Source of the DNA: an uncultured Acidobacteriota bacterium
GTDB lineage: Bacteria > Acidobacteriota > Terriglobia > Terriglobales > Acidobacteriaceae
Reading direction: 5' to 3'
Length of the DNA: 64,000 nucleotides
Assembly (NCBI GenBank): GCA_963703735.1
Contig: CAVPFM010000007.1
Location: 52,723-116,722 of the forward strand
Position 1 is the stretch's first letter. Each line of letters opens with the position of its first letter. The notes under the pieces were generated by a model. The model saw only the letters and a list, made by a program, of their open reading frames with translations, searched no databases and was not told the DNA's origin. This document shows positions 7,274-61,977 of the stretch, in pieces. The translations under genes and the position numbers were made by a program.

Positions 7274-7987
7274 CTAGATGCCTGAAGCGCGCGTAGGGAG
7301 TTGCGGTTCCGGAGCCGACGGAGTTTCTTCCGGATGAACGTTGTGCCGCACGTCAGAACCCTGTACCCAGAAGATGACATCCTCGGCGATATTCGTGGCG
7401 TGGTCGGCAACGCGTTCTAAATTGCGGGCGACCAGCAGTGCATCCAGAGCCTGCCGCACGATCTCAGGACGATCGTTCATCGTCTTGACCAGCTGGATGA
7501 AGGCGTCGTCGCGCATCCGGTCGATGACGTTGTCCATTTCGAGCACAGCTTGTGCGAGCTCCACTTTGCCCTCGATGAACGACTCTAACGCCCGGCGCAC
7601 CATGGCACTCACGGCTGTTCCCATACGCGCGATGTCGACGGGAAGGTCTGCCGCAGGCAGTTCCACCATGTCCATCACGCGCTCGGCGATGTTCACCGCC
7701 TGATCGCCAACACGCTCGAGATCGGAATTAATCTTGGTGACGGCGAGGATGAAGCGCAGGTCCACCGCCATCGGCTGCTGCATAGCGAGCATGTCAAAAG
7801 CAGCTTCGTCGATTTCGCGTTCGGCGATGTTGATCAGATTTTCGCCTTCGAGCACCATCTGGCAGCGGGTCAGGTCGCGCTCTACATAGGCCTGGCGGGC
7901 GCGGTCCACCGCCTGCTCCGCCAGTCCTCCCATGCGAAGCAACCGCTGCCGTAGATCGTCGAGCCCCTGCTGAAAGCGCGTACGCAT
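7274..7987 (-). CDS. phoU: Phosphate signalling complex protein PhoU
   Basis: 237 aa. Two PhoU repeats with metal-binding-type motifs (VGDQAVNIAERV, VADHATNIAEDV). Lies directly downstream of pstB. Confidence 0.93.
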   Translation of the reverse strand: MRTRFQQGLDDLRQRLLRMGGLAEQAVDRARQAYVERDLTRCQMVLEGENLINIAEREIDEAAFDMLAMQQPMAVDLRFILAVTKINSDLERVGDQAVNIAERVMDMVELPAADLPVDIARMGTAVSAMVRRALESFIEGKVELAQAVLEMDNVIDRMRDDAFIQLVKTMNDRPEIVRQALDALLVARNLERVADHATNIAEDVIFWVQGSDVRHNVHPEETPSAPEPQLPTRASGI

Positions 7988-8016
7988 TATCCGAACCTTT
8001 CCTTACTTGAATCTGC

Positions 8017-8775
8017 CTACCCGAATCTGCCGGTGATGTAATCTTCCGTCTTCTTGTCGGACGGCTTGGTAAAAATTTTCTCGGTCTTATCGAACTCAAT
8101 CATCTTGCCCAGCAGGAAAAAGCCGGTGAACTCTGCGACGCGCGCCGCCTGTTGCATGTTGTGCGTCACGATTACGATGGTATACCGCTCTTTCAGCTGG
8201 AAGATCAACTCTTCAATTTTTCCGGTAGAAATCGGATCGAGCGCCGAGCAGGGTTCGTCCATCAGGAGAACTTCGGGCTCGACCGCCAGGGCGCGCGCGA
8301 TACACAACCGCTGCTGCTGGCCGCCTGAAAGACTGGCTCCGGATTTCTTATGGAGATGGTCCTTGGCTTCGTCCCACAGAGCCGAAACTTCCAGCGAACG
8401 CTGCACGATCTCGTCCAGCTTGCGGCGGTCGCGAAATCCATTCAACTTGAGCCCCGACGCGACGTTGTCGTAAATCGACATGGTGGGGAACGGATTCGGC
8501 TTCTGGAATACCATGCCGACGCGACGTCGCAGCTGTGTAGCGGAAGTTCCGTTGTAGGCGTCGATTTCGCCGATGCGGACGCGGCCTTCCACCCGCGCTT
8601 CCGGAATCGTCTCGTGCATGCGATTAATGCAGCGGATGAACGTCGATTTTCCGCACCCCGAAGGACCAATCAGCGCGGTGGCATGGTTCGCCGCCACCTT
8701 GAGATTGATGTCAAATAACGCTTGGCCCTTGCCATACCAGGCATTCAGGTTCTCGACCTGGATTCCAACGCCCAT
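8017..8775 (-). CDS. pstB: Phosphate ABC transporter ATP-binding protein
   Basis: 252 aa. Walker [13 protein letters not shown] signature LSGGQQQRL, Walker B LLMDEP. PstB-typical N-terminus. Confidence 0.95.
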
Positions 8776-8778
8776 AAA

Positions 8779-9651
8779 TTATGCCGCTCCGAACGAGCCG
8801 CGCCGAACCGCATACCGAACGGCAGCGACCGAGCTTACGATAAGAAGGATGAGAACGAACGATCCGGCCCATGCCTGACGATGCCAGTCATCATAAGCGG
8901 AGTTGGCGTACACATAGATCTGCAACGGTAGGGCGGCGGTGGGCTGATCGTACCGCAGATTCCAAAACGTATTGCCCAGCGCAGTGAAAAGCAACGGCGC
9001 AGTTTCGCCCGCTACTCTAGCGAAGGCCAGCATGACGCCGGTGATCACACCGGAAGTCGCGGTGCGAAGCGTGATCGAAAGTGTTGTCCGCCAGCGCGGG
9101 ACGCCGAGGCCATACGCCGCCTCCCGTAGCGCCTGCGGGACTAACAGCAGCATCTCTTCCGTCGTCCGGCAAATGGTCGGGACCATCATGATCGACAGTG
9201 CCACTCCGCCGGCCAGCGCTGAAAATCCGCGACCGCGAACCAGGATCGCCCAGGCGACGATGCCGATCACGATCGACGGCACTCCGTTGAGCACGTCTGC
9301 GGTGAAGCGAATGGCGGCTCCGAAGCGATTGCGTCCGAACTCAGCCAGGTAGATGCCAGCGCCGACTCCAAACGGTACGCCAATGACGCTGGCAATCCCG
9401 AGAATCAGCATCGATCCGACGATCGCGTTGGCCATGCCTCCGCCGGGCTCGCCGACGGGCTTGGGAGTTTGGGTGAGGAAAGCCCAGTTAAGGGAGCCCA
9501 CGCCCTTGTAGACGAGGTAGCCAAAGATAGCAATCAGCGGAGCCAACACCAGCACGACGGTCAGCACGGCCACACCCGTCATCACATGATCGGTGACGCG
9601 GCGGCGCAGACTGATCGGTGGAACGGTGGCCTGTGAAGTGGATGTGCTCAT
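8779..9651 (-). CDS. pstA: Phosphate ABC transporter permease PstA
   Basis: 290 aa polytopic permease. Its stop lies 3 nt before the pstB start, in the order pstC-pstA-pstB-phoU. Confidence 0.9.
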   Translation of the reverse strand: MSTSTSQATVPPISLRRRVTDHVMTGVAVLTVVLVLAPLIAIFGYLVYKGVGSLNWAFLTQTPKPVGEPGGGMANAIVGSMLILGIASVIGVPFGVGAGIYLAEFGRNRFGAAIRFTADVLNGVPSIVIGIVAWAILVRGRGFSALAGGVALSIMMVPTICRTTEEMLLLVPQALREAAYGLGVPRWRTTLSITLRTATSGVITGVMLAFARVAGETAPLLFTALGNTFWNLRYDQPTAALPLQIYVYANSAYDDWHRQAWAGSFVLILLIVSSVAAVRYAVRRGSFGAA

Positions 9652-9655
9652 GAGT

Positions 9656-10699
9656 TCAGGCGTTTCCCCTCGCAGGCTGACCGCGTGTCACGGTCCACAC
9701 AAGAAGTTGCGCCAGCGCATTGACAACGATCGTGACCACGAAGAGCGCAAGGCCAATCTCGACTAGAGCGGAAAGATAGGTATCGCCGGTCGCCTCGCTA
9801 AACTCGTTGGCGAGCACGCTAGCCATGGTGTATCCGGGCGCAAATAGGGACTTCGCAATCTCCGGGCGGTTGCCGATCACCATGGTGACTGCCATGGTCT
9901 CTCCCAGCGCACGGCCCAATCCAAGAATGATTCCGCCAACGATCCCGGCGCGCGCGTTGCGCAGAACCCCGACTCGAATCATCTCCCAGCGCGTTGCACC
10001 CAGGGCCAGCACCGCCTCTCGCTGGTGTTGTGGGACGACCATCAGCACTTCGCGGGCGATCGAGGAGATGATCGGAATGATCATGACGGCCAGGATAATT
10101 CCGGCAGCCAGCATTCCGATCCCGTAAGGAGCGCCGGTAAAGAGCCCAGTCCATCCGAGAGTCTTTCCCAGAAACGGTTCGACGTAGCCGCTCAACAGCG
10201 GCACCAACACAAACATCGCCCAGAGCCCGTAGATCACGCTGGGAATCGCCGCCAGCAATTCCACGAAAAACGACAGTGGAGCGCGGAAGACTTTGGGGCA
10301 CATCTCAGTGGTGAAGACGGCAACCCCGACCGCTAGCGGGACTGCGATGATGAGCGCCACCAGGGATGAAACCAGGGTTCCGTAGATAAAGGGCAGAGCG
10401 CCGAATTGCTCGCTCACCGGGTCCCAATCGCTGCCGGCGAAGAATTTGAACCCAAATGCGTGCCAGGAAAGTCCGGAACCTGAGATCAGGGCGTAGACGA
10501 TCAGGATCAAAACTCCCAGGACGGCCAGGCCGCAAGCTGTCATCAACGACTTAAAAACACGGTCGGGAATTTCGCCGCCTGAAACGTGCAGCAGGGGTGC
10601 CGTCCGGGGCTCGGTCAAGGCTGTAACTTTCGTAGCTTCAACAGGTTGCGGACCAGGCATATCAGGCCGTGAGAACGCATGGTTGGCCATTCGGCTCAA
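9656..10699 (-). CDS. pstC: Phosphate ABC transporter permease PstC; start uncertain
   Basis: 347 aa polytopic permease, 4 nt upstream of pstA. The track start at 10699 is TTG. An in-frame ATG sits at 10690 (MANHAF...) and another at 10660. No good SD sequence is visible for any of them. Confidence 0.88.
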   Translation of the reverse strand: MSRMANHAFSRPDMPGPQPVEATKVTALTEPRTAPLLHVSGGEIPDRVFKSLMTACGLAVLGVLILIVYALISGSGLSWHAFGFKFFAGSDWDPVSEQFGALPFIYGTLVSSLVALIIAVPLAVGVAVFTTEMCPKVFRAPLSFFVELLAAIPSVIYGLWAMFVLVPLLSGYVEPFLGKTLGWTGLFTGAPYGIGMLAAGIILAVMIIPIISSIAREVLMVVPQHQREAVLALGATRWEMIRVGVLRNARAGIVGGIILGLGRALGETMAVTMVIGNRPEIAKSLFAPGYTMASVLANEFSEATGDTYLSALVEIGLALFVVTIVVNALAQLLVWTVTRGQPARGNA

Positions 10700-10713
10700 C
10701 CGTAGCAGAGACT

Positions 10714-10741
10714 TGTTACAAAGATGTTAAAATGGGGTAGT
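10714..10741 (-). promoter_or_regulatory. Candidate Pho box: phased hexamers ACTACC-N5-TTAACA-N5-GTAACA
   Basis: Read on the minus strand. Hexamers at 10741-10736, 10730-10725 and 10719-10714 have 11-bp periodicity. They lie in the pstC/CHAD divergent intergenic region. The architecture matches the pstS site at 19188-19215. Confidence 0.4.
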
Positions 10742-11818: not shown

Positions 11819-13348
11819 ATGCCCACGTTCGCCGCGGTCGATGTCGGCTCCAATTCCGTTCGCCTTAAGATTGCTCGCCTTCAAGGCGGCCGCCTGCGCG
11901 CCTTGCACGAAGACCGTGAAGTGACGCGTCTCGGCGACGGAGTGTTCGGCTCTGGATTTCTCACTCCCGATTCAATGGCCGAGACCGTCAAAGTCTTGCG
12001 CCGCTTTCATCGCGCCACGCAGCAGATTGTCACCGACACTGTGCGCGTGGTTGCCACCAGTGCGCTGCGCGACGCGCGCAACTCGCAGGCATTTCTGGAG
12101 TGGGTGCGATCCGCAACGGGTTGGCGGGTTGAAATCATCTCCGGCGTGGAAGAAGCGCGCCTCATTCACCTCGGGCTAGTCTCTGGACCGCGCATCGACA
12201 GCGCTCCCATGCTGATGATGGATCTGGGCGGCGGAAGCTGCGAACTAACCGTTTCCCAAGGCGGACACATCCGGGACGCCGCCAGCCTTCCGCTGGGCGC
12301 GGTTCGCCTGACGAACGAATTCCTCCGCCACGACCCTCCGCGCAAGGGAGAACTTAAGCGTCTGCGCGGTTTCGTCGCGCGCGAGGTGAATCGAGTAGTA
12401 GATCGCATTTCCGCTTCGAAGGTGAAGAACGTAATTGCGACCTCCGGCACAGCAGCGGCGCTGGCTGCTGTGGCGGGCCATATGCGGCGCGGGGCCGCGC
12501 GTCAGAGAAACATGGTGTCGCGGGCTGAGATGACCCGCATCGCCAAACGCCTGGCCCGGCTACCGGTCGCCGAGCGTCGCAAAATCGAGGGAATCGGACC
12601 CCGCCGCGCGGAAATCATCGTCGCCGGCGCCACGGTCTATCACGAACTGCTGGACCGTCTCCATCTCAAGGGCTTCCGCTATTCCCCTCTCGGATTGCGC
12701 GACGGAATCCTGGCGCAGATGGCGGCAGATTACGATCGCAGCACGCGCTCGGGCCGTCAGATCGAATCCGAGCGCTGGGAATCGATCATGAAGGCGGTCG
12801 CGCATTATCACGTGGATCGCAAGCACGCGCTGGATGTCCGCGACGCGGCTACTTTGCTTTTCACCTCGCTGCGCTCCGTGCACCGCCTTCCGCCGGAATA
12901 CCGCGAGTGGCTGGCCGCAGCCGCCATGCTGTATGAAGTTGGCGACTACGTCAATCGTAACGGGCGCCACCGGCACGCCAACTACATCATTTCCAATTCT
13001 GAAATCCTCGGCTACACGCCGCAAGAGCGCCGCCTGATCGCGGCGATTGCGCGCTATCTGGGAAAAACGCGTCCCAGCCTAGAAGACGGTCCGATGAAAG
13101 CGATTGAGGCACCTGAGCGCGCGGACGTGCAGAAGGCGATCGTCCTTCTCCGCCTGGCACGCGCGCTCAATCTAGGCCGCAGCCGCGCGGTGGAGAAAGT
13201 TCGCATCGGAGTTCGATCCGCCGGAGTAAAGTTGACGCTCGTGCCCCGACGTCGCATGGGAGTGGATCTGGAACTCTGGGCAATTGAAAAAGAGTGTGAT
13301 TACTTCCGCGAGGTGTTCGGACGGGAGCTTTCCACTGCCGTGTCGTAA
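11819..13348 (+). CDS. ppx: Exopolyphosphatase / guanosine pentaphosphate phosphohydrolase family
   Basis: 509 aa. ASKHA-fold motifs AAVDVGSNSVRL and MDLGGGSCEL. C-terminal HD-like helical domain. Confidence 0.9.
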   Translation: MPTFAAVDVGSNSVRLKIARLQGGRLRALHEDREVTRLGDGVFGSGFLTPDSMAETVKVLRRFHRATQQIVTDTVRVVATSALRDARNSQAFLEWVRSATGWRVEIISGVEEARLIHLGLVSGPRIDSAPMLMMDLGGGSCELTVSQGGHIRDAASLPLGAVRLTNEFLRHDPPRKGELKRLRGFVAREVNRVVDRISASKVKNVIATSGTAAALAAVAGHMRRGAARQRNMVSRAEMTRIAKRLARLPVAERRKIEGIGPRRAEIIVAGATVYHELLDRLHLKGFRYSPLGLRDGILAQMAADYDRSTRSGRQIESERWESIMKAVAHYHVDRKHALDVRDAATLLFTSLRSVHRLPPEYREWLAAAAMLYEVGDYVNRNGRHRHANYIISNSEILGYTPQERRLIAAIARYLGKTRPSLEDGPMKAIEAPERADVQKAIVLLRLARALNLGRSRAVEKVRIGVRSAGVKLTLVPRRRMGVDLELWAIEKECDYFREVFGRELSTAVS

Positions 13349-13830
13349 AGCGTCCGCAGCAGCTTTGGCGTAATGCACCATTGCAGGGTCCCAGAGGTAC
13401 GGCGCATTTCCACTTTGGCGACCGCGCCTTTCTTCAGTTCGAGCGACGCTTCGCACCCTGAATCGCTGATGATCGCGCCCAGAAACTGGCTCAGATTGGG
13501 ATTGTGCCCAACAACCATAATCGCTTCCTGCCGCGAATATTTCTCCAGCAACTTGCGGAAGTCAGCAAGCCCGGCGATCGGACGCAGCGCGGCGTCGATC
13601 TGCAATTTCCCTTCGTAGCCAAGCTCATTGCCCACCAGCGAAGCGGTCTGCGTGCATCGTTTCAGCGGGCTAGAGACAATTGCGTCCACCTGAGCGTTTA
13701 GCGCCGTAAGAGCGCGGCCAACGTAGCCGCACTGCTCGATTCCCTCTTTGTCGAGGGCGCGTTTTTCATCCTTTTTCGGATTGGCGATGTGCTCGCCGGC
13801 ACTGGCGTGGCGCAGAAAATAAAGAATCAT
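13300..13830 (-). CDS. sixA: SixA-type phosphohistidine phosphatase
   Basis: 176 aa. Histidine-phosphatase RHA motif (MILYFLRHASAGEH) and VGHNP. The start lies 3 nt after the ppk1 stop. The 3' end overlaps the ppx 3' end by 49 nt (convergent). Confidence 0.8.
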   Translation of the reverse strand: MILYFLRHASAGEHIANPKKDEKRALDKEGIEQCGYVGRALTALNAQVDAIVSSPLKRCTQTASLVGNELGYEGKLQIDAALRPIAGLADFRKLLEKYSRQEAIMVVGHNPNLSQFLGAIISDSGCEASLELKKGAVAKVEMRRTSGTLQWCITPKLLRTLYDTAVESSRPNTSRK

Positions 13831-13833
13831 GGC

Positions 13834-16002
13834 TTACCGTTCCCTTCCCACGCTTACTTTACGCCTTGGCGCGGGAACTAGGGCGGGCATGAGCGCCGGT
13901 GCCTTCCCTTCCGCCACGCTCATCAGAAAATCCTGCGCACTGAAGGCTGCAGCACCGAGGGGCGGACGGCGATTTCTTTTTCCATGGATCGGCTGCCATC
14001 CAGGGATATACGTCGCGTCACTCAGCAGGATGCGTGCTTTCCGGTTGTCCGCCAGGTATGCACCCAGAATCTCGTGACGAATCCTTTCTCGCAGCATCTC
14101 GTCGCGGACCGGCACCAGCACTTCGACACGTTCATAGAGATTGCGCGGCATCCAATCCGCGCTGCCGATATAAATCTCTTCGTCGCCACCATTGGCGAAG
14201 GAGAAGATTCGGCTGTGCTCCAGAAAGCGCCCCACAATGCTGCGCACGCGGATATTGGCGCTGACTCCGCGTACTCCCGGACGCAACGCGCAGATACCGC
14301 GAACAATCAAATCGATGTGCACTCCCGCCTGCGACGAGCGGTAGAGCGCCTGAATAATATTCTTGTCGAGCAGCGCGTTCATCTTGGCGATGATCCGCGC
14401 CGGCTTTCCCTGCAGAGCGTGCTCGGCCTCGCGGTCAATCAGGGCGACACACTTTTCCGCTAAATCGAGGGGAGCGACCAGAAGCGGTTCGTAGCTTGGG
14501 TTCTCGGCATACGCGGTCAGAAAACTGAACACATCGTGGACGGCGCGGGTGACCTCGGGATTCGCCGTGAACAGGCTCAGGTCGGTATAGATGCGAGCGG
14601 TCGTCGCGTTGTAGTTTCCCGTGCCGATATGCGCGTAACTGCGCGGGACTCCATCGGGATCGCGACGCACGAGCAGCGACAGCTTGCAGTGCGTCTTCAG
14701 CCCGACGAGGCCGTGAAAGACTTGCACGCCGGCGTCCTCCATATCGCGCGCCCAGCGGATGTTCGAAGCTTCATCGAAACGCGCCTTCAACTCCACGACT
14801 GCCGTCACTTCCTTGCGCGACGCGGCTTCCATGAGCGCGGGCACAATGTGCGAACGTTCGCTGGTCCGGTAAAGCGTCTGCTTGATCGAGAGAACGTTGT
14901 CGTCCTCGGCCGCCGAGCCGATGAACGAAACCACCGCGTCGTAAGAATCAAACGGGTGGTGCAGCAGCACGTCGTGCTGCCGCAACTCCTCGAACATATC
15001 CTTCGATTTCGAAGTGAGCCGTAGTTCCCGCGGAGCAAACGGACGATCCTTCAGCTCCGGACGGTCGACTTGCTCGTAGACATTGAACAAACGCACGAGG
15101 TTCACGGGCCCGTTGACAGGAAAGACCTGCCACGGATCCAGCTCAAAGACGGTCCGCAGTCGCTCGATAATCTCTGGATCGGCGTCGGCTTCGATCTCCA
15201 TGCGTACCGCATCGCCCTTGCGGCGATTGTGCAATTCGGTGCGGACCGACTCGAGCAGGCTGCGCGCCTCCTCTTCCGCCAGATACAGGTTGCTATTGCG
15301 GGTCACGCGGAAAGGGGCCGAGGAAACGATGTCGTAACCCTGATACATGCGGACGGCGTGATGCGCGACCAGATCCGCGAGAAAAATAAAATCCGCAGGT
15401 CCTTCGGACGGAAGTCGAACGAGTCTTGGCAAAGCGCGCGGAACCGAAACCACTCCGGTATAGGTCAGCGCGGAACGACGACGACGCCGCAACAGAAATC
15501 CGACGCACAAGGCCTTGTTGATCACCCGCGGAAACGGATGCGCCGGGTCCACGGTCACCGGGGTCAGCAGCGGGTCCAGTTCCCGCTCGCAATACTCATC
15601 CACGAACCGCAAGGCACGAGAGTCCAACTCGTGCAAACCCAGCACGCGAATTCCGTTGACCGAGAGCGCCGGTCGCAGGCGGGTACTCCAGCAGTCATAT
15701 TGGTCGTCAACAAACTCGTGCGTCAGCTTATTGAGGACATCCCGTTTTTCGGTCAGCGTCAGACCGTCGGGGCCTGCCTCGTTGTAGCCGTCTTCGATCT
15801 GCTGCATCATCGCCGCAACCCGCACTTCGAAGAATTCGTCGAGGTTGCTGGCGGAAATAGACAAGAACTTTAGCCGCTCGAGAAGAGGATTGCCCTCGTC
15901 CTCGGCTTCTTCGAGCACACGCCGGTTAAACGCGAGCCACGAGGTGTCGCGATTGAGGAAGTACTGAGGATTATCCAGCGAGATGCGAGCCATGGAACGC
16001 AC
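13834..16002 (-). CDS. ppk: Polyphosphate kinase 1
   Basis: 722 aa. N-terminal FLNRDTSWLAFNRRVLEEA. Two PLD-like C-terminal domains (GLKTHCKLSLLVRR, VGRFLEHSRIF). Confidence 0.95.
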   Translation of the reverse strand: MRSMARISLDNPQYFLNRDTSWLAFNRRVLEEAEDEGNPLLERLKFLSISASNLDEFFEVRVAAMMQQIEDGYNEAGPDGLTLTEKRDVLNKLTHEFVDDQYDCWSTRLRPALSVNGIRVLGLHELDSRALRFVDEYCERELDPLLTPVTVDPAHPFPRVINKALCVGFLLRRRRRSALTYTGVVSVPRALPRLVRLPSEGPADFIFLADLVAHHAVRMYQGYDIVSSAPFRVTRNSNLYLAEEEARSLLESVRTELHNRRKGDAVRMEIEADADPEIIERLRTVFELDPWQVFPVNGPVNLVRLFNVYEQVDRPELKDRPFAPRELRLTSKSKDMFEELRQHDVLLHHPFDSYDAVVSFIGSAAEDDNVLSIKQTLYRTSERSHIVPALMEAASRKEVTAVVELKARFDEASNIRWARDMEDAGVQVFHGLVGLKTHCKLSLLVRRDPDGVPRSYAHIGTGNYNATTARIYTDLSLFTANPEVTRAVHDVFSFLTAYAENPSYEPLLVAPLDLAEKCVALIDREAEHALQGKPARIIAKMNALLDKNIIQALYRSSQAGVHIDLIVRGICALRPGVRGVSANIRVRSIVGRFLEHSRIFSFANGGDEEIYIGSADWMPRNLYERVEVLVPVRDEMLRERIRHEILGAYLADNRKARILLSDATYIPGWQPIHGKRNRRPPLGAAAFSAQDFLMSVAEGKAPALMPALVPAPRRKVSVGRER

Positions 16003-16148
16003 TTATTGGAATGCTGTTTGAAGTCGAACTCACCACCGGAGCATCATTCGCATCGGAGCGCCGAATGCGAACCGCTAGTATAAAGCATCCTCGGAGTCTT
16101 GCTCGGATGCCGACTCAACTCTTGCACTGCCTTCTGCTGATAATGAAA

Positions 16149-16185
16149 CCCGGCACGGACCGCGCATCTGCGCTCTCCGTGCCGG
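16149..16185 (-). terminator. Intrinsic terminator downstream of the porin gene
   Basis: CCGGCACGGA...TCCGTGCCGG forms a 10-bp stem, with an inner GCGCA/TGCGC pairing. On the minus strand it is followed by TTTCATTATC. It lies 40 nt after the porin stop. Confidence 0.55.
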
Positions 16186-16224
16186 TAGCTGTTGCCTTGT
16201 CCTGAACCTAACTACGATCGCTCG

Positions 16225-18081
16225 TTACGGCAGGTAATACCGGAACGACGTGAAGATCATCGAGTCGAGTCCATGCGGCTGGTTCGGCGATGAAGCTCCC
16301 GACCAGGCATTGCGGGTAACGTACGAGTACTGTGGTCCCCACTGGACGCGGCCTTTGGGTCCGTTGTAAATGCGATACCAGAAGCCCGCCGTTCCTTCGA
16401 TCAGCACGCGCGTGTCTGCAGTGCAGCTCGACAGCCCGCCCGGCAGGAATCCGTTGTTGTTCACAGGACCGGTTTCCGTGAAGCATCCCGTGTTGCTGAA
16501 CTGCGGAGACCCGTAGCCGACAGCCTTTTTGAGGATCGGGTCAAATGTCGCGCTGCGGCCCGCATATTCCGCTCCGGTATTGAAGTAAATATCTAGCTTG
16601 GGTCCGTGCCACTCGAGAGTCGCCAAACCCTGCAAGCTCTTGATCAAGCCCAGCGTGCCGTCATCGCGCACGGTCACGTCGGAGAGTCCACCGGTGCCGT
16701 AGCGGCCGATTCCGGCGCCACCGAGGCCGTGCAAACCGAAGTCGACCTTCTTGCCGGCAAATGACCAGCGAGCATTGGCGCCGATACCGCCGCCGTTCTT
16801 CGAAGAGTTGTAGGCTCCCTTGGCATTCGGCCCAGCAGTAGTGCTCAGGCAATCCGTCGTCGAAGAAACGTCTTCGCAGGGGAACACCCGGTCACGGAAG
16901 CGGCTGAACACACCGAAGACTTCGTAGTGTCCAAAGCCAGGCTCGAAGGCAAGCTTGGCAACAACGTCTGGCGAGGGATTGAACGCATACGACGCCGCAG
17001 GCGTACAGGTTGTGGTCGCTGCGGTGTCGGTGCTGTTGAGTGCAGTGCTGCAAGTGGTGATGGCGCCGTTGTAAAGTCCACCACCTGCTCCGGCCGAGCC
17101 CAGCAGGAAGTTGGCAGCGTTGTTATGGGTGGTCAGAGTGGCCTGCGCGTTTTCGAGCGAAACCGCGAACCAGACCTTGTTGTCGAAGTTTTTCGCGAGG
17201 CGAACGCCGTACTGCCGCGCCCAACTGAAACCCACGGTATATTGCGGGTCGATGGTCATGGGCAGAGCCTCACTACGGTTGTCCACGCCATGCTTGGTTT
17301 CGGTCACCAGACTCCACATCTGGCCGCCAGTGAAGCTCCAGCCATTGTCGAACGCAGCCTGGCCCCACGCCTGGCGCTGGCGGAGCGTGTAGCTGTTGCT
17401 CTCGTTGTTGTTGGAAGTGACGCCGGCCGAGAGGAAGTCAGCCTCGACGTAGCCGGAAAGCTTCACGAAATCCAACTTCCCTTCCGCGAGCATCGAGAGG
17501 CGTGACTGCCGTCCGGAACCGAAGAACTCGGAAACCGAACTCTGTGATGCGCCCGGCATGGTTACAGAGTTGAAGGGAGTGTTGATGTCGGCGGCCAGTG
17601 CACGCGTGCGGTAGACCGATTCTGCCGCCAGGAAGCCACCGGGGGTGATCGTGATTCCCTTGACGTGAATTGCAGTGGGCGGTTCCGAGAGCTTCTTCTG
17701 CGTGTCCTGCACGGCCACCACGGTGTTCGCCATGTTGCCCTTGAGGTCGGTGACATCGTTCTTCAAATCAGTGACGGTCTGCTGCTGCTGCGTGGCGACG
17801 GCCTGAGCGGCGTCCGCTTTGCTGGACGCATCTGCGGCAGTGCTCTGGGCCTGCTGGACGGTCTGATCCTTTTGGTGAAGCAGGTCCCGCAACTCCTGAA
17901 TTTGCCGCTCCTGCTGCGCCAACGCTGCCTGTTGCGAGGTGATCGCATCCTTCAGGGCCTGTACGTCAGCTGCTGTAATCGCAGCTGACTTCTTTTTTGT
18001 AGATTTCGGCGGTGTACTGGTTTGCCCCACCAGTCCGGTCGCCAGCAGAAGAATTGCACACCATCTCCACTCGAACCTCAT
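16225..18081 (-). CDS. Outer-membrane porin with N-terminal coiled coil; putative phosphate/anion-selective porin by context
   Basis: 618 aa. Signal peptide MRFEWRWCAILLLATGLVGQ. A roughly 100-aa Q/A-rich heptad-like segment (QQAALAQQERQIQELRDLLHQKDQ...) is followed by alternating beta-strand-like sequence rich in G/Y/F/N. AAGGAGAG SD sequence. Lies between pstS and ppk1. Confidence 0.6.
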   Translation of the reverse strand: MRFEWRWCAILLLATGLVGQTSTPPKSTKKKSAAITAADVQALKDAITSQQAALAQQERQIQELRDLLHQKDQTVQQAQSTAADASSKADAAQAVATQQQQTVTDLKNDVTDLKGNMANTVVAVQDTQKKLSEPPTAIHVKGITITPGGFLAAESVYRTRALAADINTPFNSVTMPGASQSSVSEFFGSGRQSRLSMLAEGKLDFVKLSGYVEADFLSAGVTSNNNESNSYTLRQRQAWGQAAFDNGWSFTGGQMWSLVTETKHGVDNRSEALPMTIDPQYTVGFSWARQYGVRLAKNFDNKVWFAVSLENAQATLTTHNNAANFLLGSAGAGGGLYNGAITTCSTALNSTDTAATTTCTPAASYAFNPSPDVVAKLAFEPGFGHYEVFGVFSRFRDRVFPCEDVSSTTDCLSTTAGPNAKGAYNSSKNGGGIGANARWSFAGKKVDFGLHGLGGAGIGRYGTGGLSDVTVRDDGTLGLIKSLQGLATLEWHGPKLDIYFNTGAEYAGRSATFDPILKKAVGYGSPQFSNTGCFTETGPVNNNGFLPGGLSSCTADTRVLIEGTAGFWYRIYNGPKGRVQWGPQYSYVTRNAWSGASSPNQPHGLDSMIFTSFRYYLP

Positions 18082-18111
18082 CGTTCACTCTCCTTTTTTT
18101 CGCGATGCATC

Positions 18112-18135
18112 AAAACCCGGGGCGCCTTGGGTTTT
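18112..18135 (-). terminator. Hairpin at the pstS stop codon; possible attenuating terminator between pstS and the porin gene
   Basis: AAAACCC...GGGTTTT is a 7-bp stem with an inner GGCGCC. The U-run is part of, or follows, the 3' arm on the minus strand. The porin SD sequence lies 20 nt downstream. Confidence 0.4.
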
Positions 18136-19139
18136 TACTTGACTTGCTTGATTGCTTCTTTCACTTTCGCAACCACGTTATCCGGCAGCGACGCATAGGA
18201 CAGGCCGGAGGTCATCTTCTGCCCGTCGGTCACCATCCAATTCAGAAAATCAGCGAGGATTTTCCCCTTGGCCGCATCTTTGGACTGCGCTGGAATCAGT
18301 AGCCACGTAAAGCTTGAAATCGGATACGCGTCCTTGCCGGGCGCGTTTGTGATCGATACTCGAAAATCCGCCGGCATCTTCGGTGCCGAAGCCGCTGCCG
18401 CCGTCACGCCGTCGAGGGATGCCTTTACGAACGCCCCCGCCGAATTCCTCACGCTTCCGTGAGGAATGTTGTTTTGAACCGCGTAGATCAATTCGACGTA
18501 GCCGATCGATCCCGACAACTGCCGGATCAATCCCGAAACGCCTTCATTGCCCTTGCCGCCCATCCCGATCGGCCACTTCACCGAAGTGTCCGCCCCCACC
18601 TGGTTCTTCCAGTCGGGGCTCACTTTCGAAAGGTAGTCCGTCCAGACAAAGCTGGTGCCGCTGCCGTCGGAGCGGTGCACGACGATGATGTCTTTGTCAG
18701 GAAAGTTAACGCCAGGATTGGCGGCAGTCAGAGCTTTATCATTCCATTTCGAAATCTTGCCGAGGAAAATTCCGGCCAGCGCTTCTGGCGTGAACTTCAC
18801 TTCGCCGCTCACTCCAGGAACGTTATAGGCCGGAACGACTGCGCCCAAGACAGTCGGAATATTCAAAATCTTGACCTTCGAATCCTGCAATTGCTTGTCG
18901 GTCATGGGCATGTCGCTGGCGCCGAAATCGACCGTTCCGGATGTGACCTGCCGGATTCCCCCGCCGCTCCCAATCGGCTGATAGTTCACTTGAACGTCGG
19001 AATGAATCTTGTGATATTCGCTAAACCATTTCGAGTACATGGGTGCGGGAAACGTAGCGCCTGCTCCGTTCAGCGTGGTCTGCCCTACGACCGGCATGGC
19101 CAACAGGACACACACCAACAGCAGCACAATTTTGCGCAT
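18135..19139 (-). CDS. pstS: Phosphate ABC transporter substrate-binding protein
   Basis: 334 aa. Signal peptide. PstS motifs GAGATFPAPMY, GSGGGI and SDGSGTSF. AGGAGGAG SD sequence. Confidence 0.93.
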   Translation of the reverse strand: MRKIVLLLVCVLLAMPVVGQTTLNGAGATFPAPMYSKWFSEYHKIHSDVQVNYQPIGSGGGIRQVTSGTVDFGASDMPMTDKQLQDSKVKILNIPTVLGAVVPAYNVPGVSGEVKFTPEALAGIFLGKISKWNDKALTAANPGVNFPDKDIIVVHRSDGSGTSFVWTDYLSKVSPDWKNQVGADTSVKWPIGMGGKGNEGVSGLIRQLSGSIGYVELIYAVQNNIPHGSVRNSAGAFVKASLDGVTAAAASAPKMPADFRVSITNAPGKDAYPISSFTWLLIPAQSKDAAKGKILADFLNWMVTDGQKMTSGLSYASLPDNVVAKVKEAIKQVK

Positions 19140-19187
19140 TGCCAGGTGACTCCTCCTTGAATAGGTGTCCCCTTTCTATCGTCGGTG

Positions 19188-19215
19188 TGTTAAAGGACGG
19201 TTACAAACGGGTAAA
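19188..19215 (-). promoter_or_regulatory. Candidate Pho box: three phased hexamers TTTACC-N5-GTAACC-N5-TTAACA
   Basis: Read on the minus strand, 49-76 nt upstream of the pstS ATG. Exact 6+5 (11-bp) phasing. The hexamers resemble the PhoP-type TT(A/T/C)ACA direct-repeat consensus. Confidence 0.5.
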
Positions 19216-19472
19216 TTTCTGATGAACGGGATGAGAATGAAAACGTGGAGAGTCAACCCTAGAAGAGATCTAATAGCTGGTGGATCTGCGAAGAAGTTTT
19301 CAGCCGGCAGCTTGGAGTCGAGCGGTGCATGGTCCCGATTTTGCCGGCGCTGCGCTCCACGTTAGTCACGCCCCACGTATGCTTGGATGACGACTTCAAT
19401 GGAATCACCACCAGCCTTGTAAAACACTTGTTTCTTTGACTGGGATACATTTGAGTTCGAGGATTGCGATCC

Positions 19473-21884
19473 ATGACTGATTCCCCCACCCGCTACGCTC
19501 CCGGATGGCCCGGTATTCCGCCGCGCTGGACCTCCAGCGCCAAGAGTGGTGTCGGCACGGCACTCAACCAGCACAGCAAAGTCTGGTTCACTTTAAGTCA
19601 CGGCATCCTGAATGAAGTCTATTTTCCCCGAGTGGACCAGGCATGTACGCGCGACATGGGATTCATCGTTACCGATGGCCGCGATTTTTTTTCGGAAGAA
19701 AAACGGAATTGCACACTCGAAAACCGCCCGGTGGAACCCGGCATTCCGGCGTATGAAATGATCAACAGCTGCAACTCGGGACGCTACCGCATTCACAAAG
19801 AAGTGCTGACCGATCCCTTCCGCAACGTGGTTCTGCAAAAAGTCCGCTTCGAGCCCCTGACCGGTCAACTGTCCGACTACCACTTATTTGCCTTGCTCTC
19901 GCCTCATCTGGCCAACTTCGGAAATGGCAATACGGGATGGATCGGCGACTACAAAGGCTACCCCATGTTCTTCGCCCAGCACGACGGAGCGACCTTGAGT
20001 CTGGCTTCGTCGACGCCGTGGAAAAAGATGTCCGTCGGCTTTGTCGGAGCCTCCGACGGCTGGCAGGACCTCTCGCAGCACTTCAAGATGGAGTGGGAAT
20101 ATACGCGCGCGGAGAACGGCAACATTGCCTTCACCGGAGAAATTGACCTCGCTGCCTGCAACGGCGAGTTCATCCTTGCTCTTGGCTTCGGCGCGATCTG
20201 GACCGAGGCCGGGCAACAATCCCGCTCAGCCCTGTTTGAGGACTACAACGAAATTCGCCTGCAGTACATCACGCAATGGAGCAACTGGCAAACCAAGCTG
20301 CTAAAGCTCGACCAGCCCTTACGGCAAAATGATTTATATCGCGCGTCCACGGCCGCCCTGCGAACGCACGAGTCCAAGGACTTTCTCGGCGGCATCATCG
20401 CCAGCCTTTCGATTCCGTGGGGATTCAACAAGGGCGACGAGGATCTCGGCGGATATCACCTCGTCTGGCCGCGCGACCTGGTTGAGACTGCGGGAGCGCT
20501 GTTGGCAGCCGGTGCGGTCAATGACGCGGTGCGTGTGCTCCGATACCTCGAGGCCACGCAGGAGGCAGACGGCAATTGGGCGCAGAATCTGTGGCTCGAT
20601 GGGCGACCTTACTGGAGCGGCATCCAGATGGATGAGACCGCCTTTCCCATTCTGCTGATCGATCTCCTCCGCCGCGAAGCGCCGGAAGCCTTGGGCAAGC
20701 TCGATCGCTGGTGGCCGATGGTCCACAACGCCGCGAGCTTCATCATCCGCAATGGCCCGGTCACGCAGCAAGATCGCTGGGAAGAAGACGCCGGCTATTC
20801 TCCGTTTACTCTCGCGGCAGAAATTTCAGCGCTGCTGGCTGGCGCCGATCTGGCGGATCTCACCGGGCATTCGGACCAGGCCCAAACCATGCGGGATGTC
20901 GCCGACGCGTGGAACGACAACATCGAACGTTGGGTTTATGCCAGTGGCGGCGACCTCGCGCAGCAACTCGGGGTGGAAGGATACTACGTACGGATCGCCC
21001 CTCCCGACACCGATGGCGCCGCATCGCCTACGGAGGGCTTCGTGCCGATCAAGAACCGTCCGCCGGGGCAGGACGGGGAGCGCGCCTACCATATCATCAG
21101 CCCCGATGCACTGGCACTAGTTCGCTTCGGCTTGCGTGCGCCCGACGATCCGCGGATTCTCAACACGCTTCGTGCGATTGATGCGCTTCTTGCTGTCCAA
21201 CTTCCGCAGGGGCCGTGCTGGTATCGCTACAACGGCGACGGTTATGGAGAGCACAAAGACGGCTCTGCCTTCGACGGGACCGGCATCGGCCGCGCCTGGC
21301 CGCTGCTCGCCGGAGAGCGCGGTCATTACTCTTTGGCTGCCGGACATCGCGATGAAGCCGTGGCGCTGCTTACCGTGATGGAAAATTCGACTGCCGGACA
21401 TAGCCGCTTGCTTCCCGAGCAGGTTTGGGATGCGGCCGATATTCCGGCGCTCGAACTCTTCCGTGGCAAGCCAACCGGCTCGGCGTGCCCGCTAGTGTGG
21501 GCGCATTCCGAATACATCAAGCTGCGCCGCTCGATTCGCGACGGCAAAATCTTCGACCAGCCCCCGCAAACCGTGAAGCGATATCTGATCGATAAACATG
21601 TGCGACAAATCTTCGGTTGGAGATTTAATAACAAGACGCGTTCAATTCCGCGGAACAAGACGCTCCGCATCGTGATGCTCTCTCCCGCGCGCGTGCACTG
21701 GAGTGTCGACGACTGGAAGACGGCGCACGACACCGACACCCGCGATACGGGACTCGGAATCCATGTCCTCGACCTGCCGACCGCGTCTCTGCCGGTGGGA
21801 GCTCAGGCGATCTTCACGTTTTTCTGGTCGGAAGAAAATCGATGGGAAGGTACGGACTATCTTGTTACGGTCGAAAAGAACTGA
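19473..21884 (+). CDS. GH15 glucoamylase/glucodextranase-type glycoside hydrolase
   Basis: Start re-set to the ATG at 19473, with GAGGA 9 nt upstream; the track start at 19464 is TTG. N-terminal beta-sandwich domain followed by an (alpha/alpha)6 catalytic domain. Motifs LWPRDL, WEEDAGYSPFTLAA and LLPEQVWD. Confidence 0.85.
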   Translation: MTDSPTRYAPGWPGIPPRWTSSAKSGVGTALNQHSKVWFTLSHGILNEVYFPRVDQACTRDMGFIVTDGRDFFSEEKRNCTLENRPVEPGIPAYEMINSCNSGRYRIHKEVLTDPFRNVVLQKVRFEPLTGQLSDYHLFALLSPHLANFGNGNTGWIGDYKGYPMFFAQHDGATLSLASSTPWKKMSVGFVGASDGWQDLSQHFKMEWEYTRAENGNIAFTGEIDLAACNGEFILALGFGAIWTEAGQQSRSALFEDYNEIRLQYITQWSNWQTKLLKLDQPLRQNDLYRASTAALRTHESKDFLGGIIASLSIPWGFNKGDEDLGGYHLVWPRDLVETAGALLAAGAVNDAVRVLRYLEATQEADGNWAQNLWLDGRPYWSGIQMDETAFPILLIDLLRREAPEALGKLDRWWPMVHNAASFIIRNGPVTQQDRWEEDAGYSPFTLAAEISALLAGADLADLTGHSDQAQTMRDVADAWNDNIERWVYASGGDLAQQLGVEGYYVRIAPPDTDGAASPTEGFVPIKNRPPGQDGERAYHIISPDALALVRFGLRAPDDPRILNTLRAIDALLAVQLPQGPCWYRYNGDGYGEHKDGSAFDGTGIGRAWPLLAGERGHYSLAAGHRDEAVALLTVMENSTAGHSRLLPEQVWDAADIPALELFRGKPTGSACPLVWAHSEYIKLRRSIRDGKIFDQPPQTVKRYLIDKHVRQIFGWRFNNKTRSIPRNKTLRIVMLSPARVHWSVDDWKTAHDTDTRDTGLGIHVLDLPTASLPVGAQAIFTFFWSEENRWEGTDYLVTVEKN

Positions 21885-58968: not shown

Positions 58969-60066
58969 TCAGACCTCTTTAGCCCCAACGAGTTCAGACT
59001 GAGAACGGAGGGCGGCTTCGGTCTTCACGGAGGGAGTCGCGGGCGTATCTCGATACTTCCTCTTGCGATAGCCTTGAAGAAGCGATAGCGGCGCCATCGA
59101 GAAGCAAAATGCAGTGAAACTATCGAAGGCGCGCAGAACGCGGTAGGTCAGCTTGTCCTTAATGCGTTGCAGCAGGTCAGCAGAGTTTGCCTTCGAGGCG
59201 TCAGCGCTCGGATAGGGCGGCCAGTTGCCCACGAAATGCTTGCGCCAGAAAACCACGTAGCGATCGATCTTGGCGCGTAGATCGTTGTCGACGACGTTGG
59301 GACGTGGGCCCGCAACGATCTTGTCCCCTTTGACGAACGCATGATGCTGGCCTCCGTAGATAGCGGTGCGATCCGCGCCTTGCAGATTCGCCAGATCATC
59401 CTGATACGGAATCTGCAGAAAGCTGCAGACTTCCCGCATGACCGCCGGAGTGTCGCGCACCAAATCTTCATAACTGAGGGCATAGACCGGCTTGCCGTGT
59501 GCAACCAGCCAATCGTGCTGCTGCTTGTAGACTCCATAACCGATCAGTCCGCGGAGGGTTGATCCCGGACGCTTGAAGTAGGAGTTCCCGCTCTTGGCGG
59601 CACGCAAGATGCTGTTGGCCGTACCCGCCGGATCGCGCCAGACGATGATGAACTTGGCGTTGGGAAATGTCTCAGCCATTTCCTGCAGACGGTCGTAGTA
59701 GTTGGGAGATTTGTCGCCCCAGATCGTCGCACCTTTGCGGCGTGCGAATTCTTTGTGGACCGCTTCGAAAGCCTTCGGGAAATCCGCGATGCCCTGATTG
59801 AAGTCTTGGACGTTGAGGCCGTGACGGGTGAAGGCCTGATTCCAGAATTCCCAACGCTGTGCCCAGTCGCAGGAGCGTCCGGCCTTCAGGAATGCTGAGC
59901 GCAGCAGCAGCAAGTCGGCCTCATACATGAGTCCGACCTGCGGATGCTTGTTCAACAAGGCGTAGAGCAACGACGAACCCGACCGCCACATGCTGACCAC
60001 AAAGAGCGGGCCCAAAACCTGCCCCGTCGCAGTATGGGTGGTCGGTTTAGCTGATGGCGATGGCAT
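58969..60066 (-). CDS. Sulfotransferase family protein (Sulfotransfer_3-like)
   Basis: Start re-set to the ATG at 60066 (MPSPSAKP...). P-loop-like SMWRSGSSLLYALL; KFIIVWRDP. Hydrophobic/amphipathic C-terminal segment AFDSFTAFCFSMAPLSLL. Overlaps the upstream gene by 20 nt. Confidence 0.7.
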   Translation of the reverse strand: MPSPSAKPTTHTATGQVLGPLFVVSMWRSGSSLLYALLNKHPQVGLMYEADLLLLRSAFLKAGRSCDWAQRWEFWNQAFTRHGLNVQDFNQGIADFPKAFEAVHKEFARRKGATIWGDKSPNYYDRLQEMAETFPNAKFIIVWRDPAGTANSILRAAKSGNSYFKRPGSTLRGLIGYGVYKQQHDWLVAHGKPVYALSYEDLVRDTPAVMREVCSFLQIPYQDDLANLQGADRTAIYGGQHHAFVKGDKIVAGPRPNVVDNDLRAKIDRYVVFWRKHFVGNWPPYPSADASKANSADLLQRIKDKLTYRVLRAFDSFTAFCFSMAPLSLLQGYRKRKYRDTPATPSVKTEAALRSQSELVGAKEV

Positions 60067-60706
60067 GTTTCGCCTCAATGTCCGCGGAATGCGCGGGGAA
60101 CGCGACAACGGGATTCGCCTCCGAGGAACGCATCCTCCACGCGCCATCCACTTTTTCGATAAACGTCACGGTGCCGGTGGACGGTCCTCCCTGCACCGGA
60201 ACTCGATCACGATCTCCGTGTTCGAGGATGGTCTTCGCCGCAAGGAGATTTCGCACGTGGGTCACGGCAACGATATACCCTGATGATTGCTCCGCCAGAG
60301 CGAGCATCTCGGTCAGGCGTCGCGAATAGCGGGCGTAGAACTGATGAAACGATTCGCCGTTCGGAGCCGGCAAGTCTGGACGCTCGTTCAGCAGATTCAG
60401 AAACGGGATGATCTCCCGCAGCAGTTGGCCGCCGAATACGCCCAGGTTCCACGGGCGAAGTTCGTCTGTGGTGACCACGGACGCATTGGTAGTACGGCGA
60501 ATCGCTTCTGCCGTCTGGCCAGCTCGCTTCAAATCGGAAGAGTAGATAGCGGTGACGGGATAACCAGCGATCTGGAGAGCGGTTTCCTCCGCTTCCTGCA
60601 AGCCTTGCTCATCGAGCGGAATGTCGAGCCAAGCGCGCAAACGCTCTTCTTTGCCGTGACTGTTAAGGGGAGTATGTCCGTGCCGAATCAGAATAAGCTT
60701 ACCCAC
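60047..60706 (-). CDS. Histidine phosphatase superfamily (PGAM-like) protein
   Basis: Start re-set to the GTG at 60706, with AGGAG 8 nt upstream. RHG motif KLILIRHGHT; later VTHVRN. Confidence 0.75.
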   Translation of the reverse strand: MGKLILIRHGHTPLNSHGKEERLRAWLDIPLDEQGLQEAEETALQIAGYPVTAIYSSDLKRAGQTAEAIRRTTNASVVTTDELRPWNLGVFGGQLLREIIPFLNLLNERPDLPAPNGESFHQFYARYSRRLTEMLALAEQSSGYIVAVTHVRNLLAAKTILEHGDRDRVPVQGGPSTGTVTFIEKVDGAWRMRSSEANPVVAFPAHSADIEAKHAIAIS

Positions 60707-60827
60707 AGATTGGACTCCTATTGAGATTTGTATGGCGCACGACAATGACGGTGCTATATACGGGATGCAGAGGCGTCGTCATGGACGTGTTGAACCGGAG
60801 GGGGAATCGTCAATCTATAGTAGTCCG

Positions 60828-60870
60828 ATTGACATTATGGGAATGTAACACGTCAGTAACAATTGTCAAT
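60828..60870 (+). promoter_or_regulatory. Inverted repeat ATTGACA/TGTCAAT enclosing two phased hexamers GTAACA-N5-GTAACA
   Basis: Inverted-repeat arms at 60828-60834 and 60864-60870. GTAACA at 60845-60850 and 60856-60861 (plus strand). Lies in an AT-rich 272-nt gap upstream of the phosphatase-sulfotransferase genes. The hexamer and 6+5 phasing match the pst sites. Confidence 0.4.
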
Positions 60871-61017
60871 AGGAATTTGGTGGTAGAGATGGCACTTTTC
60901 ACCCTGTATCAAACACGCGATTCCCGCACTGGACGCCGCTTTCCGGCCGACTAAGCCCATGAGGCAGGACTGGCGTTTCACCCGCTGCGCGGTCTCGACT
61001 CCTTCAAGAAGACGAGG

Positions 61018-61398
61018 CTAGCCCGCCAAAAGAGCCACTCCGCCGGCAACCAAGGCGGCGGCGATCCAGCGGCGGCGGTCGACTTTCTCATGAAGGAAGA
61101 ACCTCGCGGCGAAGGCATTGCCGATGAAGGTAAGGGAGGCGGCGGCGGGGGCGACAAGGCTGACATCTCCCCAGGACAGCGCAAAGAGCAGGCTGAAAAA
61201 TGCGAGCGCCATGGCCGTCACGCCGAAAAAGAAATTCGGATTACCGAGAGTGCGGCCGATGACGGTCCCCAGTCCGCGGCGCTTCCATACATCGTGCACG
61301 TCGCCAACCTGCTTCATCGCACGGGCGAGGACGACGTCCCCGACGACGGAAAAGAAAACGACGACGAGAATCCCACCCCAGGTGTAGAGGCTCTTCAT
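61018..61398 (-). CDS. Half-size EamA/DMT-superfamily membrane protein (4 TM)
   Basis: 126 aa, four predicted TM helices. The ATG overlaps the upstream stop (ATGA at 61395-61398). Confidence 0.65.
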   Translation of the reverse strand: MKSLYTWGGILVVVFFSVVGDVVLARAMKQVGDVHDVWKRRGLGTVIGRTLGNPNFFFGVTAMALAFFSLLFALSWGDVSLVAPAAASLTFIGNAFAARFFLHEKVDRRRWIAAALVAGGVALLAG

Positions 61399-61844
61399 CG
61401 CTTGCCTCCGCCTGCGGCCGCCGAGACAACAACCTCTTGAGCATCTTCTTCCGCCTCGGGATGAGAGTGCGAGGTGAGGGCCGGACCTCCGGCAACGAAG
61501 CTGACGCCACCGGAAATGAGAGCTATGCCCATCCAGCGCAGCGGGCTGACTTGCTCGTGCAGGAAGAACTTGGCGACCAGGGCCAGCAGAACGTATCCGA
61601 GCGAAGTTGCGGGCAGGACATACGTGAGGTCCGCCCAGGAAAGCGCATTCATGTAGGAAGCGAAGAAGGCGAGCAGCAAGATAATGCCGACCGCGACCCA
61701 GGGATTGAGAACCGCTGAGATGACGCCCTGGAGATGATGGACGGAAATCCTGCCGGTCTGCTTCATCCCGTGCGAGAGCATGGAGTCACCAGCCGCTGCG
61801 AAGACGGTCACTCCAGCCAGCACCAGATACTTGCGGAAGGTCAA
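61395..61844 (-). CDS. Half-size EamA/DMT-superfamily membrane protein (4 TM), paralogue of the downstream gene
   Basis: 149 aa, TTG start. Shares motifs with its neighbour (GD..L...MKQ.G; LSW.D....P). Acidic C-terminal tail. Confidence 0.6.
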   Translation of the reverse strand: MTFRKYLVLAGVTVFAAAGDSMLSHGMKQTGRISVHHLQGVISAVLNPWVAVGIILLLAFFASYMNALSWADLTYVLPATSLGYVLLALVAKFFLHEQVSPLRWMGIALISGGVSFVAGGPALTSHSHPEAEEDAQEVVVSAAAGGGKR

Positions 61845-61850
61845 CGGCAG

Positions 61851-61916: not shown

Positions 61917-61977
61917 GTTCCAAGAATCAGGTACGCAAAATCAGTTCCCGGCTCACAAATTGTTACTCTGAGATTTG

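Follow-up and report, generated by a model that had tools for sequence, protein, structure and literature searches.

Phased hexamers upstream of the pstS gene of an uncultured Acidobacteriota bacterium very likely represent a real phosphate-starvation operator (Pho box). The window analysed is the whole 64,000-nucleotide stretch of DNA that contains this gene. A sequence-only reading of the window had proposed that three of these hexamers resemble a PhoP/PhoB box, and this resemblance is supported by their phasing, rarity and conservation, by the promoter geometry and by the set of phosphate genes preceded by such an element. We consider it highly probable that these hexamers form the central part of a PhoB/PhoP-type Pho box composed of head-to-tail 11-bp units, for which regulator binding, a response to phosphate and the position of the transcription start are predicted by analogy with known boxes. 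The elements of the pstS region are as follows.

19221 to 19226, minus strand: Pho-box unit 1, TTCATC, in 11-bp phase and near-invariant as TTCAT/CC in 88 distinct pstS upstream regions.
19210 to 19215, minus strand: Pho-box unit 2, TTTACC, which is TTCACC in most relatives.
19199 to 19204, minus strand: Pho-box unit 3, GTAACC, within the top-scoring 22-mer of the genome (23.2 bits).
19188 to 19193, minus strand: Pho-box unit 4, TTAACA, promoter-proximal, which is GTAACA in most relatives.
19173 to 19178, minus strand: predicted -10 hexamer of pstS, TAGAAA, 9 nt downstream of unit 4, with GATAGAA in the footprint.
19151 to 19158, minus strand: Shine-Dalgarno sequence of pstS, AAGGAGGA, conserved in the footprint.
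18135 to 19139, minus strand: pstS, phosphate-binding protein of the Pst ABC transporter (334-aa ORF; PF12849; TIGR00975 380 bits, cut-off 205).

The arrangement TTTACC-cgttt-GTAACC-gtcct-TTAACA, reported for the minus strand from 19215 to 19188 with 6+5 spacing, is confirmed by a letter check, and the distance of 49-76 nt reported between this arrangement and the pstS ATG is correct, because the ATG is located at 19139. All three hexamers are present and phased, but the array as first described is incomplete, a fourth unit, TTCATC at 19226-19221, having been overlooked. The footprint of the region, which was built first from 22 same-genus orthologues and then from 88 distinct upstream sequences (Candidatus Sulfotelmatobacter), consists of one sharp 55-nt block. 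The information content is approximately zero until ATTCATC, is high over ATTCATCAGAAATTCACCCGTTTGTAACCGTCCTGTAACA-N9-TAGAA, where the N9 positions are variable to moderate, and drops after TAGAA until the Shine-Dalgarno sequence. Because this sharp footprint includes ATTCATC, the pstS element contains four 11-bp units. A canonical sigma-70 -35/-10 pair is absent from the pstS region searched (13000-19600). The last pstS unit precedes a -10-like hexamer by 9 nt, which suggests that the array stands in place of a -35 element. At six promoters the arrays are located approximately 10 bp upstream of the -10 hexamers, at the place of a -35 element, where the -10 hexamers are assigned from sequence alone. 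The units are direct repeats in exact 11-bp phase, four at pstS, two at pstC and two to three at pitA, and the promoters of a phosphodiesterase gene and an OlsF-like gene contain three to four units each in the same exact phase. The lineage consensus proposed earlier, (T/G)T(A/T)AC(A/C), holds in its overall form, but its third position is A/C, not A/T, and the hexamer is better written as (T/G)T(A/C)A(C/T)(A/C). This refined hexamer is preceded by T-rich spacer ends, and the promoter-proximal units are TGTAAC(A/C).

The pstS gene is located in a phosphate supercluster that contains pstS, the gene for a 618-aa secreted protein, ppk1, ppx, the gene for a CHAD protein and pstC-pstA-pstB-phoU. 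The elements of this cluster other than those of the pstS region are as follows.

16225 to 18081, minus strand: 618-aa secreted protein, between pstS and ppk1; Pfam and NCBIfam give no family.
10725 to 10730, minus strand: pstC Pho-box unit TTAACA, with invariant TTTTAACA in 29 genus genomes.
10714 to 10719, minus strand: pstC Pho-box unit GTAACA, promoter-proximal (22-mer 22.2 bits).
10699 to 10704, minus strand: predicted -10 hexamer of pstCAB-phoU, TACGGT, 9 nt after the box, TA(C/G)GGT in orthologues.
7274 to 10699, minus strand: pstC-pstA-pstB-phoU operon (BPD_transp_1 twice, ABC_tran; PhoU PF01895, TIGR02135 194.5 bits, above cut-off).

The gap between pstS and the 618-aa protein gene contains only a weak hairpin (~18112-18135), and a strong GC hairpin follows the 618-aa protein gene (~16149-16185). 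This gene is possibly co-transcribed with pstS. Upstream of pstC, where the same architecture had been reported at 10714-10741, two phased hexamers, TTAACA and GTAACA, are present, but the hexamer reported as the first one, ACTACC, is not conserved in 29 orthologous promoters. The pattern shared by relatives (29 genomes) is TTTTAACA-N5-(G/T)TAACA-N9-TA(C/G)GGT. A conserved ATGGCC at 10690, 8 nt past the predicted -10 hexamer, suggests that the pstC mRNA is leaderless or near-leaderless.

A 22-position matrix (spacer-hexamer-spacer-hexamer) was trained on orthologous promoters alone, with the source genome left out, and 13.3 million positions were scanned with it. The gene map was obtained with a crude codon-usage ORF picker; some starts are wrong (that of the phosphodiesterase gene is over-extended), and distances to starts are therefore approximate. 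In the window, only three sites score at least 11 with this orthologue-derived matrix, and they are the three sites noticed in the sequence-only reading. Matches in the genome include the following.

23.2 bits: upstream of pstS.
22.9 bits: upstream of DUF485-actP.
22.2 bits: upstream of pstC.
20.6 bits: upstream of a STAS gene.
20.2 bits: upstream of the gene for the best PhoB candidate, inverted.
20.1 bits: in an 800-nt gap (G000:C3:256361-256382) in which the crude gene map calls no gene.
18.4 bits: upstream of the gene for a secreted type I phosphodiesterase (PF01663).
18.4 bits: upstream of a phoU-like/phoB-like operon.
17.9 and 16.8 bits: upstream of pitA.
17.3 bits: at 60845 of the window.
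16.7 bits: upstream of the gene for an ornithine-lipid-type acyltransferase+GNAT protein (OlsF-like).
16.0 bits: upstream of a metallophosphoesterase gene.

Phosphate genes or their regulators lie downstream of five of the nine matches that score at least 18, and pitA comes next at 17.9. Oriented upstream matches scoring at least 16 number 12, compared with a mean of 1.6 and a maximum of 3 for 20 column-permuted matrices; at a threshold of 18, six such matches are found, compared with a mean of 0.2 for the 20 permuted matrices. The motif is thus enriched genome-wide before Pho-type genes, and its top matches precede mostly phosphate genes. High-scoring sites before genes without a known phosphate role, namely DUF485-actP and the genes for a STAS protein and an ECF sigma factor, count against the Pho reading. 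The actP gene was rejected as a member of the regulon: its box is present only in the source genome and the nearest relative, and is absent from eight other orthologous upstream regions. This site, TTAACA-ctccg-TTAACA (G000:C4:498888-498909, L238), which is located 142 nt before DUF485-actP and is the second-best match in the genome, may have been gained recently or have arisen by chance. The STAS site is a three-unit array, TTAACA-ctcct-TTCACA-tttct-GTAATA (G000:C6:23981-24013), just before a 115-aa STAS-domain gene. Another site, GTAACA-ctccg-TTAACC (G000:C1:381414-381430), precedes a 491-aa OprB-family porin gene (PF04966) by 268 nt, and is almost the same as the actP site in its spacer and in the bases that follow (CTCCG...CAGAC).

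Six forward sites have a common geometry, in which TA is found exactly 9 nt past the last hexamer; they precede pstS, pstC, pitA, phoU2, the metallophosphoesterase gene and the OlsF-like gene. The pitA pattern is T(T/C)(A/C)ACA-N5-GTAACA-N9-TATAGT in 16 orthologous upstream regions. The phoU2-phoB2 operon is preceded by box-N9-TAGACT in all 30 of the 30 genus genomes, where the distal hexamer is GTAACC, TTCATC or TTAACG, all within the consensus. The metallophosphoesterase box is found in 5 of 5 genomes with a fixed geometry (N9, TAnnnn, 6 nt, ATG), and the box of the OlsF-like acyltransferase gene is found in 4 of 4 genomes with the same geometry. Upstream of the secreted phosphodiesterase gene, phased arrays are present in 19 of 23 homologous regions although the sequences have turned over; these arrays have no clear -10 hexamer at N9 spacing. 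The phoB1-phoR1 operon is preceded by an inverted box, TTCATC-N5-GTAACA, in 29 of 30 genomes, approximately 65-85 nt before the GTG codon, and phoB1 has its own TACAAT, apart from the inverted box, 6-7 nt before this GTG. The inverted box is closely preceded by a 10-bp sequence, CCTCTGTGAA (TTCACAGAGG on the other strand), repeated four times in tandem (G000:C1:~1035890-1035935, L208), and relatives (L209 and L223) have one or two copies. The TTCACA in this repeat is a box-type hexamer, but its period is 10 bp, not 11.

The predicted -10 hexamer is located only 6-8 nt before the conserved start, without a Shine-Dalgarno sequence, at pstC (ATGGCC; window 10688-10704), the metallophosphoesterase gene (ATG; G000:C4:529578-529640), phoB1 (GTG; G000:C1:~1036000-1036040) and the OlsF-like gene (ATG; G000:C9:60312-60380). 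These short gaps suggest that leaderless mRNAs are common in the source Acidobacterium. Two of the orthologues are interrupted: the pitA orthologue of one relative (G016, L041) contains an in-frame TAG, and the phosphodiesterase orthologue of another (G046, L260) is split by an in-frame TGA. They may be pseudogenes or assembly errors.

The third site that had been assigned the same architecture is as follows.

60845 to 60861, plus strand: GTAACA-cgtca-GTAACA, candidate site (17.3 bits, rank 11 genome-wide).

Two perfect GTAACA hexamers are present in exact phase, as had been reported, but this site, a candidate Pho box, points away from the nearby gene. The chances are about equal that it is not a Pho box and represents instead part of the operator of another regulator, or of the promoter of a phosphatase-sulfotransferase operon. 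The site lies inside an ATTGACA...TGTCAAT inverted repeat. The genes on both sides of it are on the minus strand; a histidine-phosphatase-family gene has this site 139-155 nt upstream of its start, in the opposite orientation. TAnnnn is absent at N9, and TAGGAA is found at N8. Four orthologous upstream regions from more distant relatives have no such direct repeat and contain other palindrome-like sequences with TGTTAC; a 21-codon ORF downstream of the site is not kept in the nearest relative. A role as a Pho box is favoured by the two consensus hexamers, and by the nearest relative, the only one in which they are kept, where the spacer has changed. Since the box of phoB1 is inverted and conserved, a site in reverse orientation may still be functional. 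An Rfam search of 60000-62500 yielded only sub-threshold microRNA noise.

Conservation of the box in orthologous promoters is found at most of these sites within the genus, including the clean pstS footprint, and also across the class. Forty pstS upstream regions were sampled from class Terriglobia outside the genus, in other genera and other families, and a related box (score at least 12) is present in 29 of them, in at least five Terriglobia families; by a rough estimate, ~1% of random 430-nt stretches reach this score. The class-wide consensus is ..TTCAC..-..TTCAC.-TTGTAACC-nnnCTGTAACA, followed by an A-rich -10 hexamer at offset 9-10. No matrix match is found within 1.5 kb of the pstS homologues (L033-L038) that come from a second family within the order; some of these genes are located immediately behind another gene, so that the promoter was probably missed in this sample.

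Two PhoB candidates, PhoB1 and PhoB2, have the PhoB model TIGR02154 as their best NCBIfam model, with 241.8 and 222.4 bits respectively against a curated cut-off of 296.2. The kinase PhoR1 gives 307.9 bits with TIGR02966 (PhoR; cut-off 334.2) and scores higher with the PnpS and WalK models. PhoB1 and PhoB2 are 60% identical and have a common recognition-helix region, PRS(V/I)DVY(V/I)RR(I/L)REKIE. Their genes are arranged in a phoB-phoR-phoU-like operon and a phoU-like/phoB-like operon, and this gene context supports the assignment of the PhoB and PhoR candidates. Each PhoB-like gene adjoins a gene for a PhoU-domain protein (G000:C1:1204055-1208697 and G000:C1:1035945-1039627), in addition to the canonical phoU behind pstB, and both PhoB/PhoU-type pairs are present in 30 of the 30 genus genomes sampled. 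Behind the orphan phoU2-phoB2 pair lies a gene for a 919-aa protein that, as judged from its sequence, resembles phosphoenolpyruvate carboxylase.

It is improbable, though worth weighing, that the element is a real conserved operator bound by another OmpR-family regulator, such as a WalR-like regulator or a regulator of the general nutrient or stress response, and is not primarily under phosphate control. The genome encodes at least ten full-length OmpR-family regulators, and both PhoB candidates score below the curated PhoB cut-off. The closest solved structures to the effector domain of PhoB1, the best PhoB candidate, are those of VicR/WalR (5e-24), with E. coli PhoB next (6e-19). The WalR/YycF box of Bacillota is TGT(A/T)A(A/T/C)-N5-TGT(A/T)A(A/T/C), and TGTAAC-N5-TGTAAC at pstS fits this consensus letter for letter. 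The essential WalRK system governs genes of cell-wall metabolism. However, the regulon is one of phosphate acquisition and not of the cell wall: downstream of the top conserved sites are genes for phosphate transport, phosphoesterases and Pho regulators, and cell-wall genes are absent among the top matrix matches. The box-bearing genes form the textbook Pho core set, which consists of pstS, pstCAB-phoU, pitA, phoBR, a phoU-like gene and genes for phosphoesterases and phosphorus-free lipid synthesis. In addition, PhoR-like and PhoU-like genes accompany those of the two best PhoB candidates, each of which adjoins a PhoU-domain gene and has an upstream box.

Exact triples of the hexamer are rare. 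The pattern KTWACM-N5-KTWACM-N5-KTWACM, with at most one mismatch, has one match in the window and none in 100 shuffles. In the genome (6.64 Mb, 57.5% G+C), the exact triple occurs twice, whereas permuted-column hexamers give a mean of 0.05 triples and none of them reaches two (n=60). The gene for a 528-aa PHO4/PitA phosphate transporter begins 70 nt downstream of the second triple, which is independent of the window sites that gave the original pattern. Because the single hexamer is rare (8668 copies genome-wide), ~5.7 dimers and 0.004 triples are expected, compared with 14 and 2 seen. The two-hexamer matches exceed expectation only relative to the frequency of the hexamer itself (~2.5-fold) and are not in excess over permuted patterns (14 versus ~25); the raw dimer count was therefore dropped as support, and support comes instead from location, triples and conservation. 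It is scarcely credible that the phased hexamers arise from chance or from the base composition of AT-rich promoter DNA (as a UP-like element or a degenerate -35) and have no dedicated regulator: this dimer count agrees with such an origin, and permuted matrices also give some intergenic matches, since intergenic DNA is AT-richer than coding DNA and AT-rich matrices therefore favour it, but the triples are ~40 times more common than those of permuted hexamers and both precede phosphate transporter genes, the footprints are sharp-edged and keep the hexamers while the spacers change, the -10 hexamer is spaced 9 nt from the nearest unit and 20 nt from the one beyond it, where a -35 element would need 16-18 nt, and the match excess over permuted matrices is 7- to 30-fold.

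The core of the box most resembles those of the Bacillus subtilis PhoP and cyanobacterial SphR boxes, and its distal units resemble Streptomyces GTTCACC. The PhoP box of B. subtilis consists of TT(A/T/C)ACA direct repeats with ~5-bp spacers, and has four repeats for two dimers. The hexamers TTAACA and TTCACA are almost identical to these repeats and the 11-bp periodicity is common to both; at pstS, likewise, four tandem units are present on the coding strand and end ~20 nt before the predicted start, without a -35 element. The two boxes differ in that the proximal units here favour G at position 1 (GTAACA or GTAACC), and in that this organism belongs to the Acidobacteriota, not the Bacillota, and has two paralogous regulators and a box to which binding is predicted. 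In the published definition, a PHO box has at least two direct repeat units of 11 nt, each with seven conserved and four less conserved bases (PMC4415409), and the E. coli box, which has two 11-nt units, is located 10 bp upstream of a -10 hexamer of the form TAN3T/A (PMC1906773). The box described here resembles that of E. coli PhoB in its tandem 11-nt units of approximately 7+4 bases, located 9-10 nt upstream of a TAnnnT-type -10 hexamer and replacing the -35 element, and the regulon shares the members pstS, pst-phoU and phoBR. It differs from the E. coli box in its core, which is TGTAAC/TTAACA and not CTGTCAT, in the presence of a box at pitA, in the inversion of the phoB1-phoR1 box, and in regulators that fall below the curated PhoB cut-off. 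In the cyanobacterial SphR box, three or more 8-bp CTTAACCT repeats stand in tandem, separated by linkers of 3 bp (PMC1906773). Its core is very similar to CTTTAACC and CTTTAACA found here, three or more units are usual, and it too is located upstream of pst genes; the lineage is different, however, and here the proximal unit is usually GTAACA with a fixed N9 to the -10 hexamer. The PHO box of Streptomyces coelicolor PhoP is composed of GTTCACC direct repeat units (PMC4415409). It likewise has 11-nt units, the number of which differs by promoter to give simple and complex operators, and the distal TTCACC and TTCATC found here are nearly GTTCACC, whereas the proximal units are TAAC-type, not TCAC-type. 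No Pho box has been described for Acidobacteria in the papers searched.

Because the geometry matches that of published PHO boxes and the core is similar, we infer activation by a phosphorylated PhoB-type regulator. Each unit would consist of a conserved core of approximately 7 bp, (T)(T/G)T(A/C)A(C/T)(A/C), and a less conserved spacer, and the four pstS units (19226-19188, minus strand) would provide room for two dimers of a response regulator of the OmpR/PhoB family. If E. coli PhoB and B. subtilis PhoP are a guide, PhoR1 would phosphorylate PhoB1, and possibly also PhoB2, upon phosphate limitation. The phosphorylated regulator would then bind head-to-tail to the tandem units and recruit RNA polymerase to a promoter lacking its own -35 element, so that pstS, and perhaps also the downstream gene for the 618-aa secreted protein, would be switched on. 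The same operator, identically spaced, would drive pstCAB-phoU, pitA, phoU2-phoB2, the metallophosphoesterase gene and the ornithine-lipid-type acyltransferase gene. The phoB1 box, because it is inverted, fits a simple model of -35 replacement poorly.

A tentative and rather doubtful extension of the Pho-box reading is that Terriglobia have a two-regulator Pho circuit, in which PhoB paralogues with near-identical recognition helices and their own PhoU-domain partners share one common box in a hierarchical or feedback design, and in which the regulon includes pitA and phosphorus-free lipid synthesis. The operon phoU2-phoB2 has a forward box, which in such a circuit would be of the activator type, and phoB1-phoR1 has a conserved inverted box ~70 nt upstream of a separate promoter of the leaderless type. 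To our knowledge, a hierarchical or feedback design with two PhoB proteins has not been described for E. coli or Bacillus.

The pstS element is the expected kind of operator in an unstudied phylum, a result that those who work on bacterial regulation would anticipate. More unusual, as far as the sequences indicate, are the duplicated PhoB/PhoU pairs, the inverted box of phoB1, the apparent Pho control of pitA and of a gene for phosphorus-free lipid synthesis, and the frequent leaderless-type spacing. Acidobacteriota, most of them uncultured, are among the most abundant bacteria of soil and peat, and there are hardly any studies of how their genes are regulated. With a validated Pho-box model, phosphate-starvation regulons would be readable directly from metagenome-assembled genomes, metatranscriptomes of phosphorus-limited soils and peat would become interpretable, and both PhoB paralogues would be testable with synthetic DNA in a culture-free manner.
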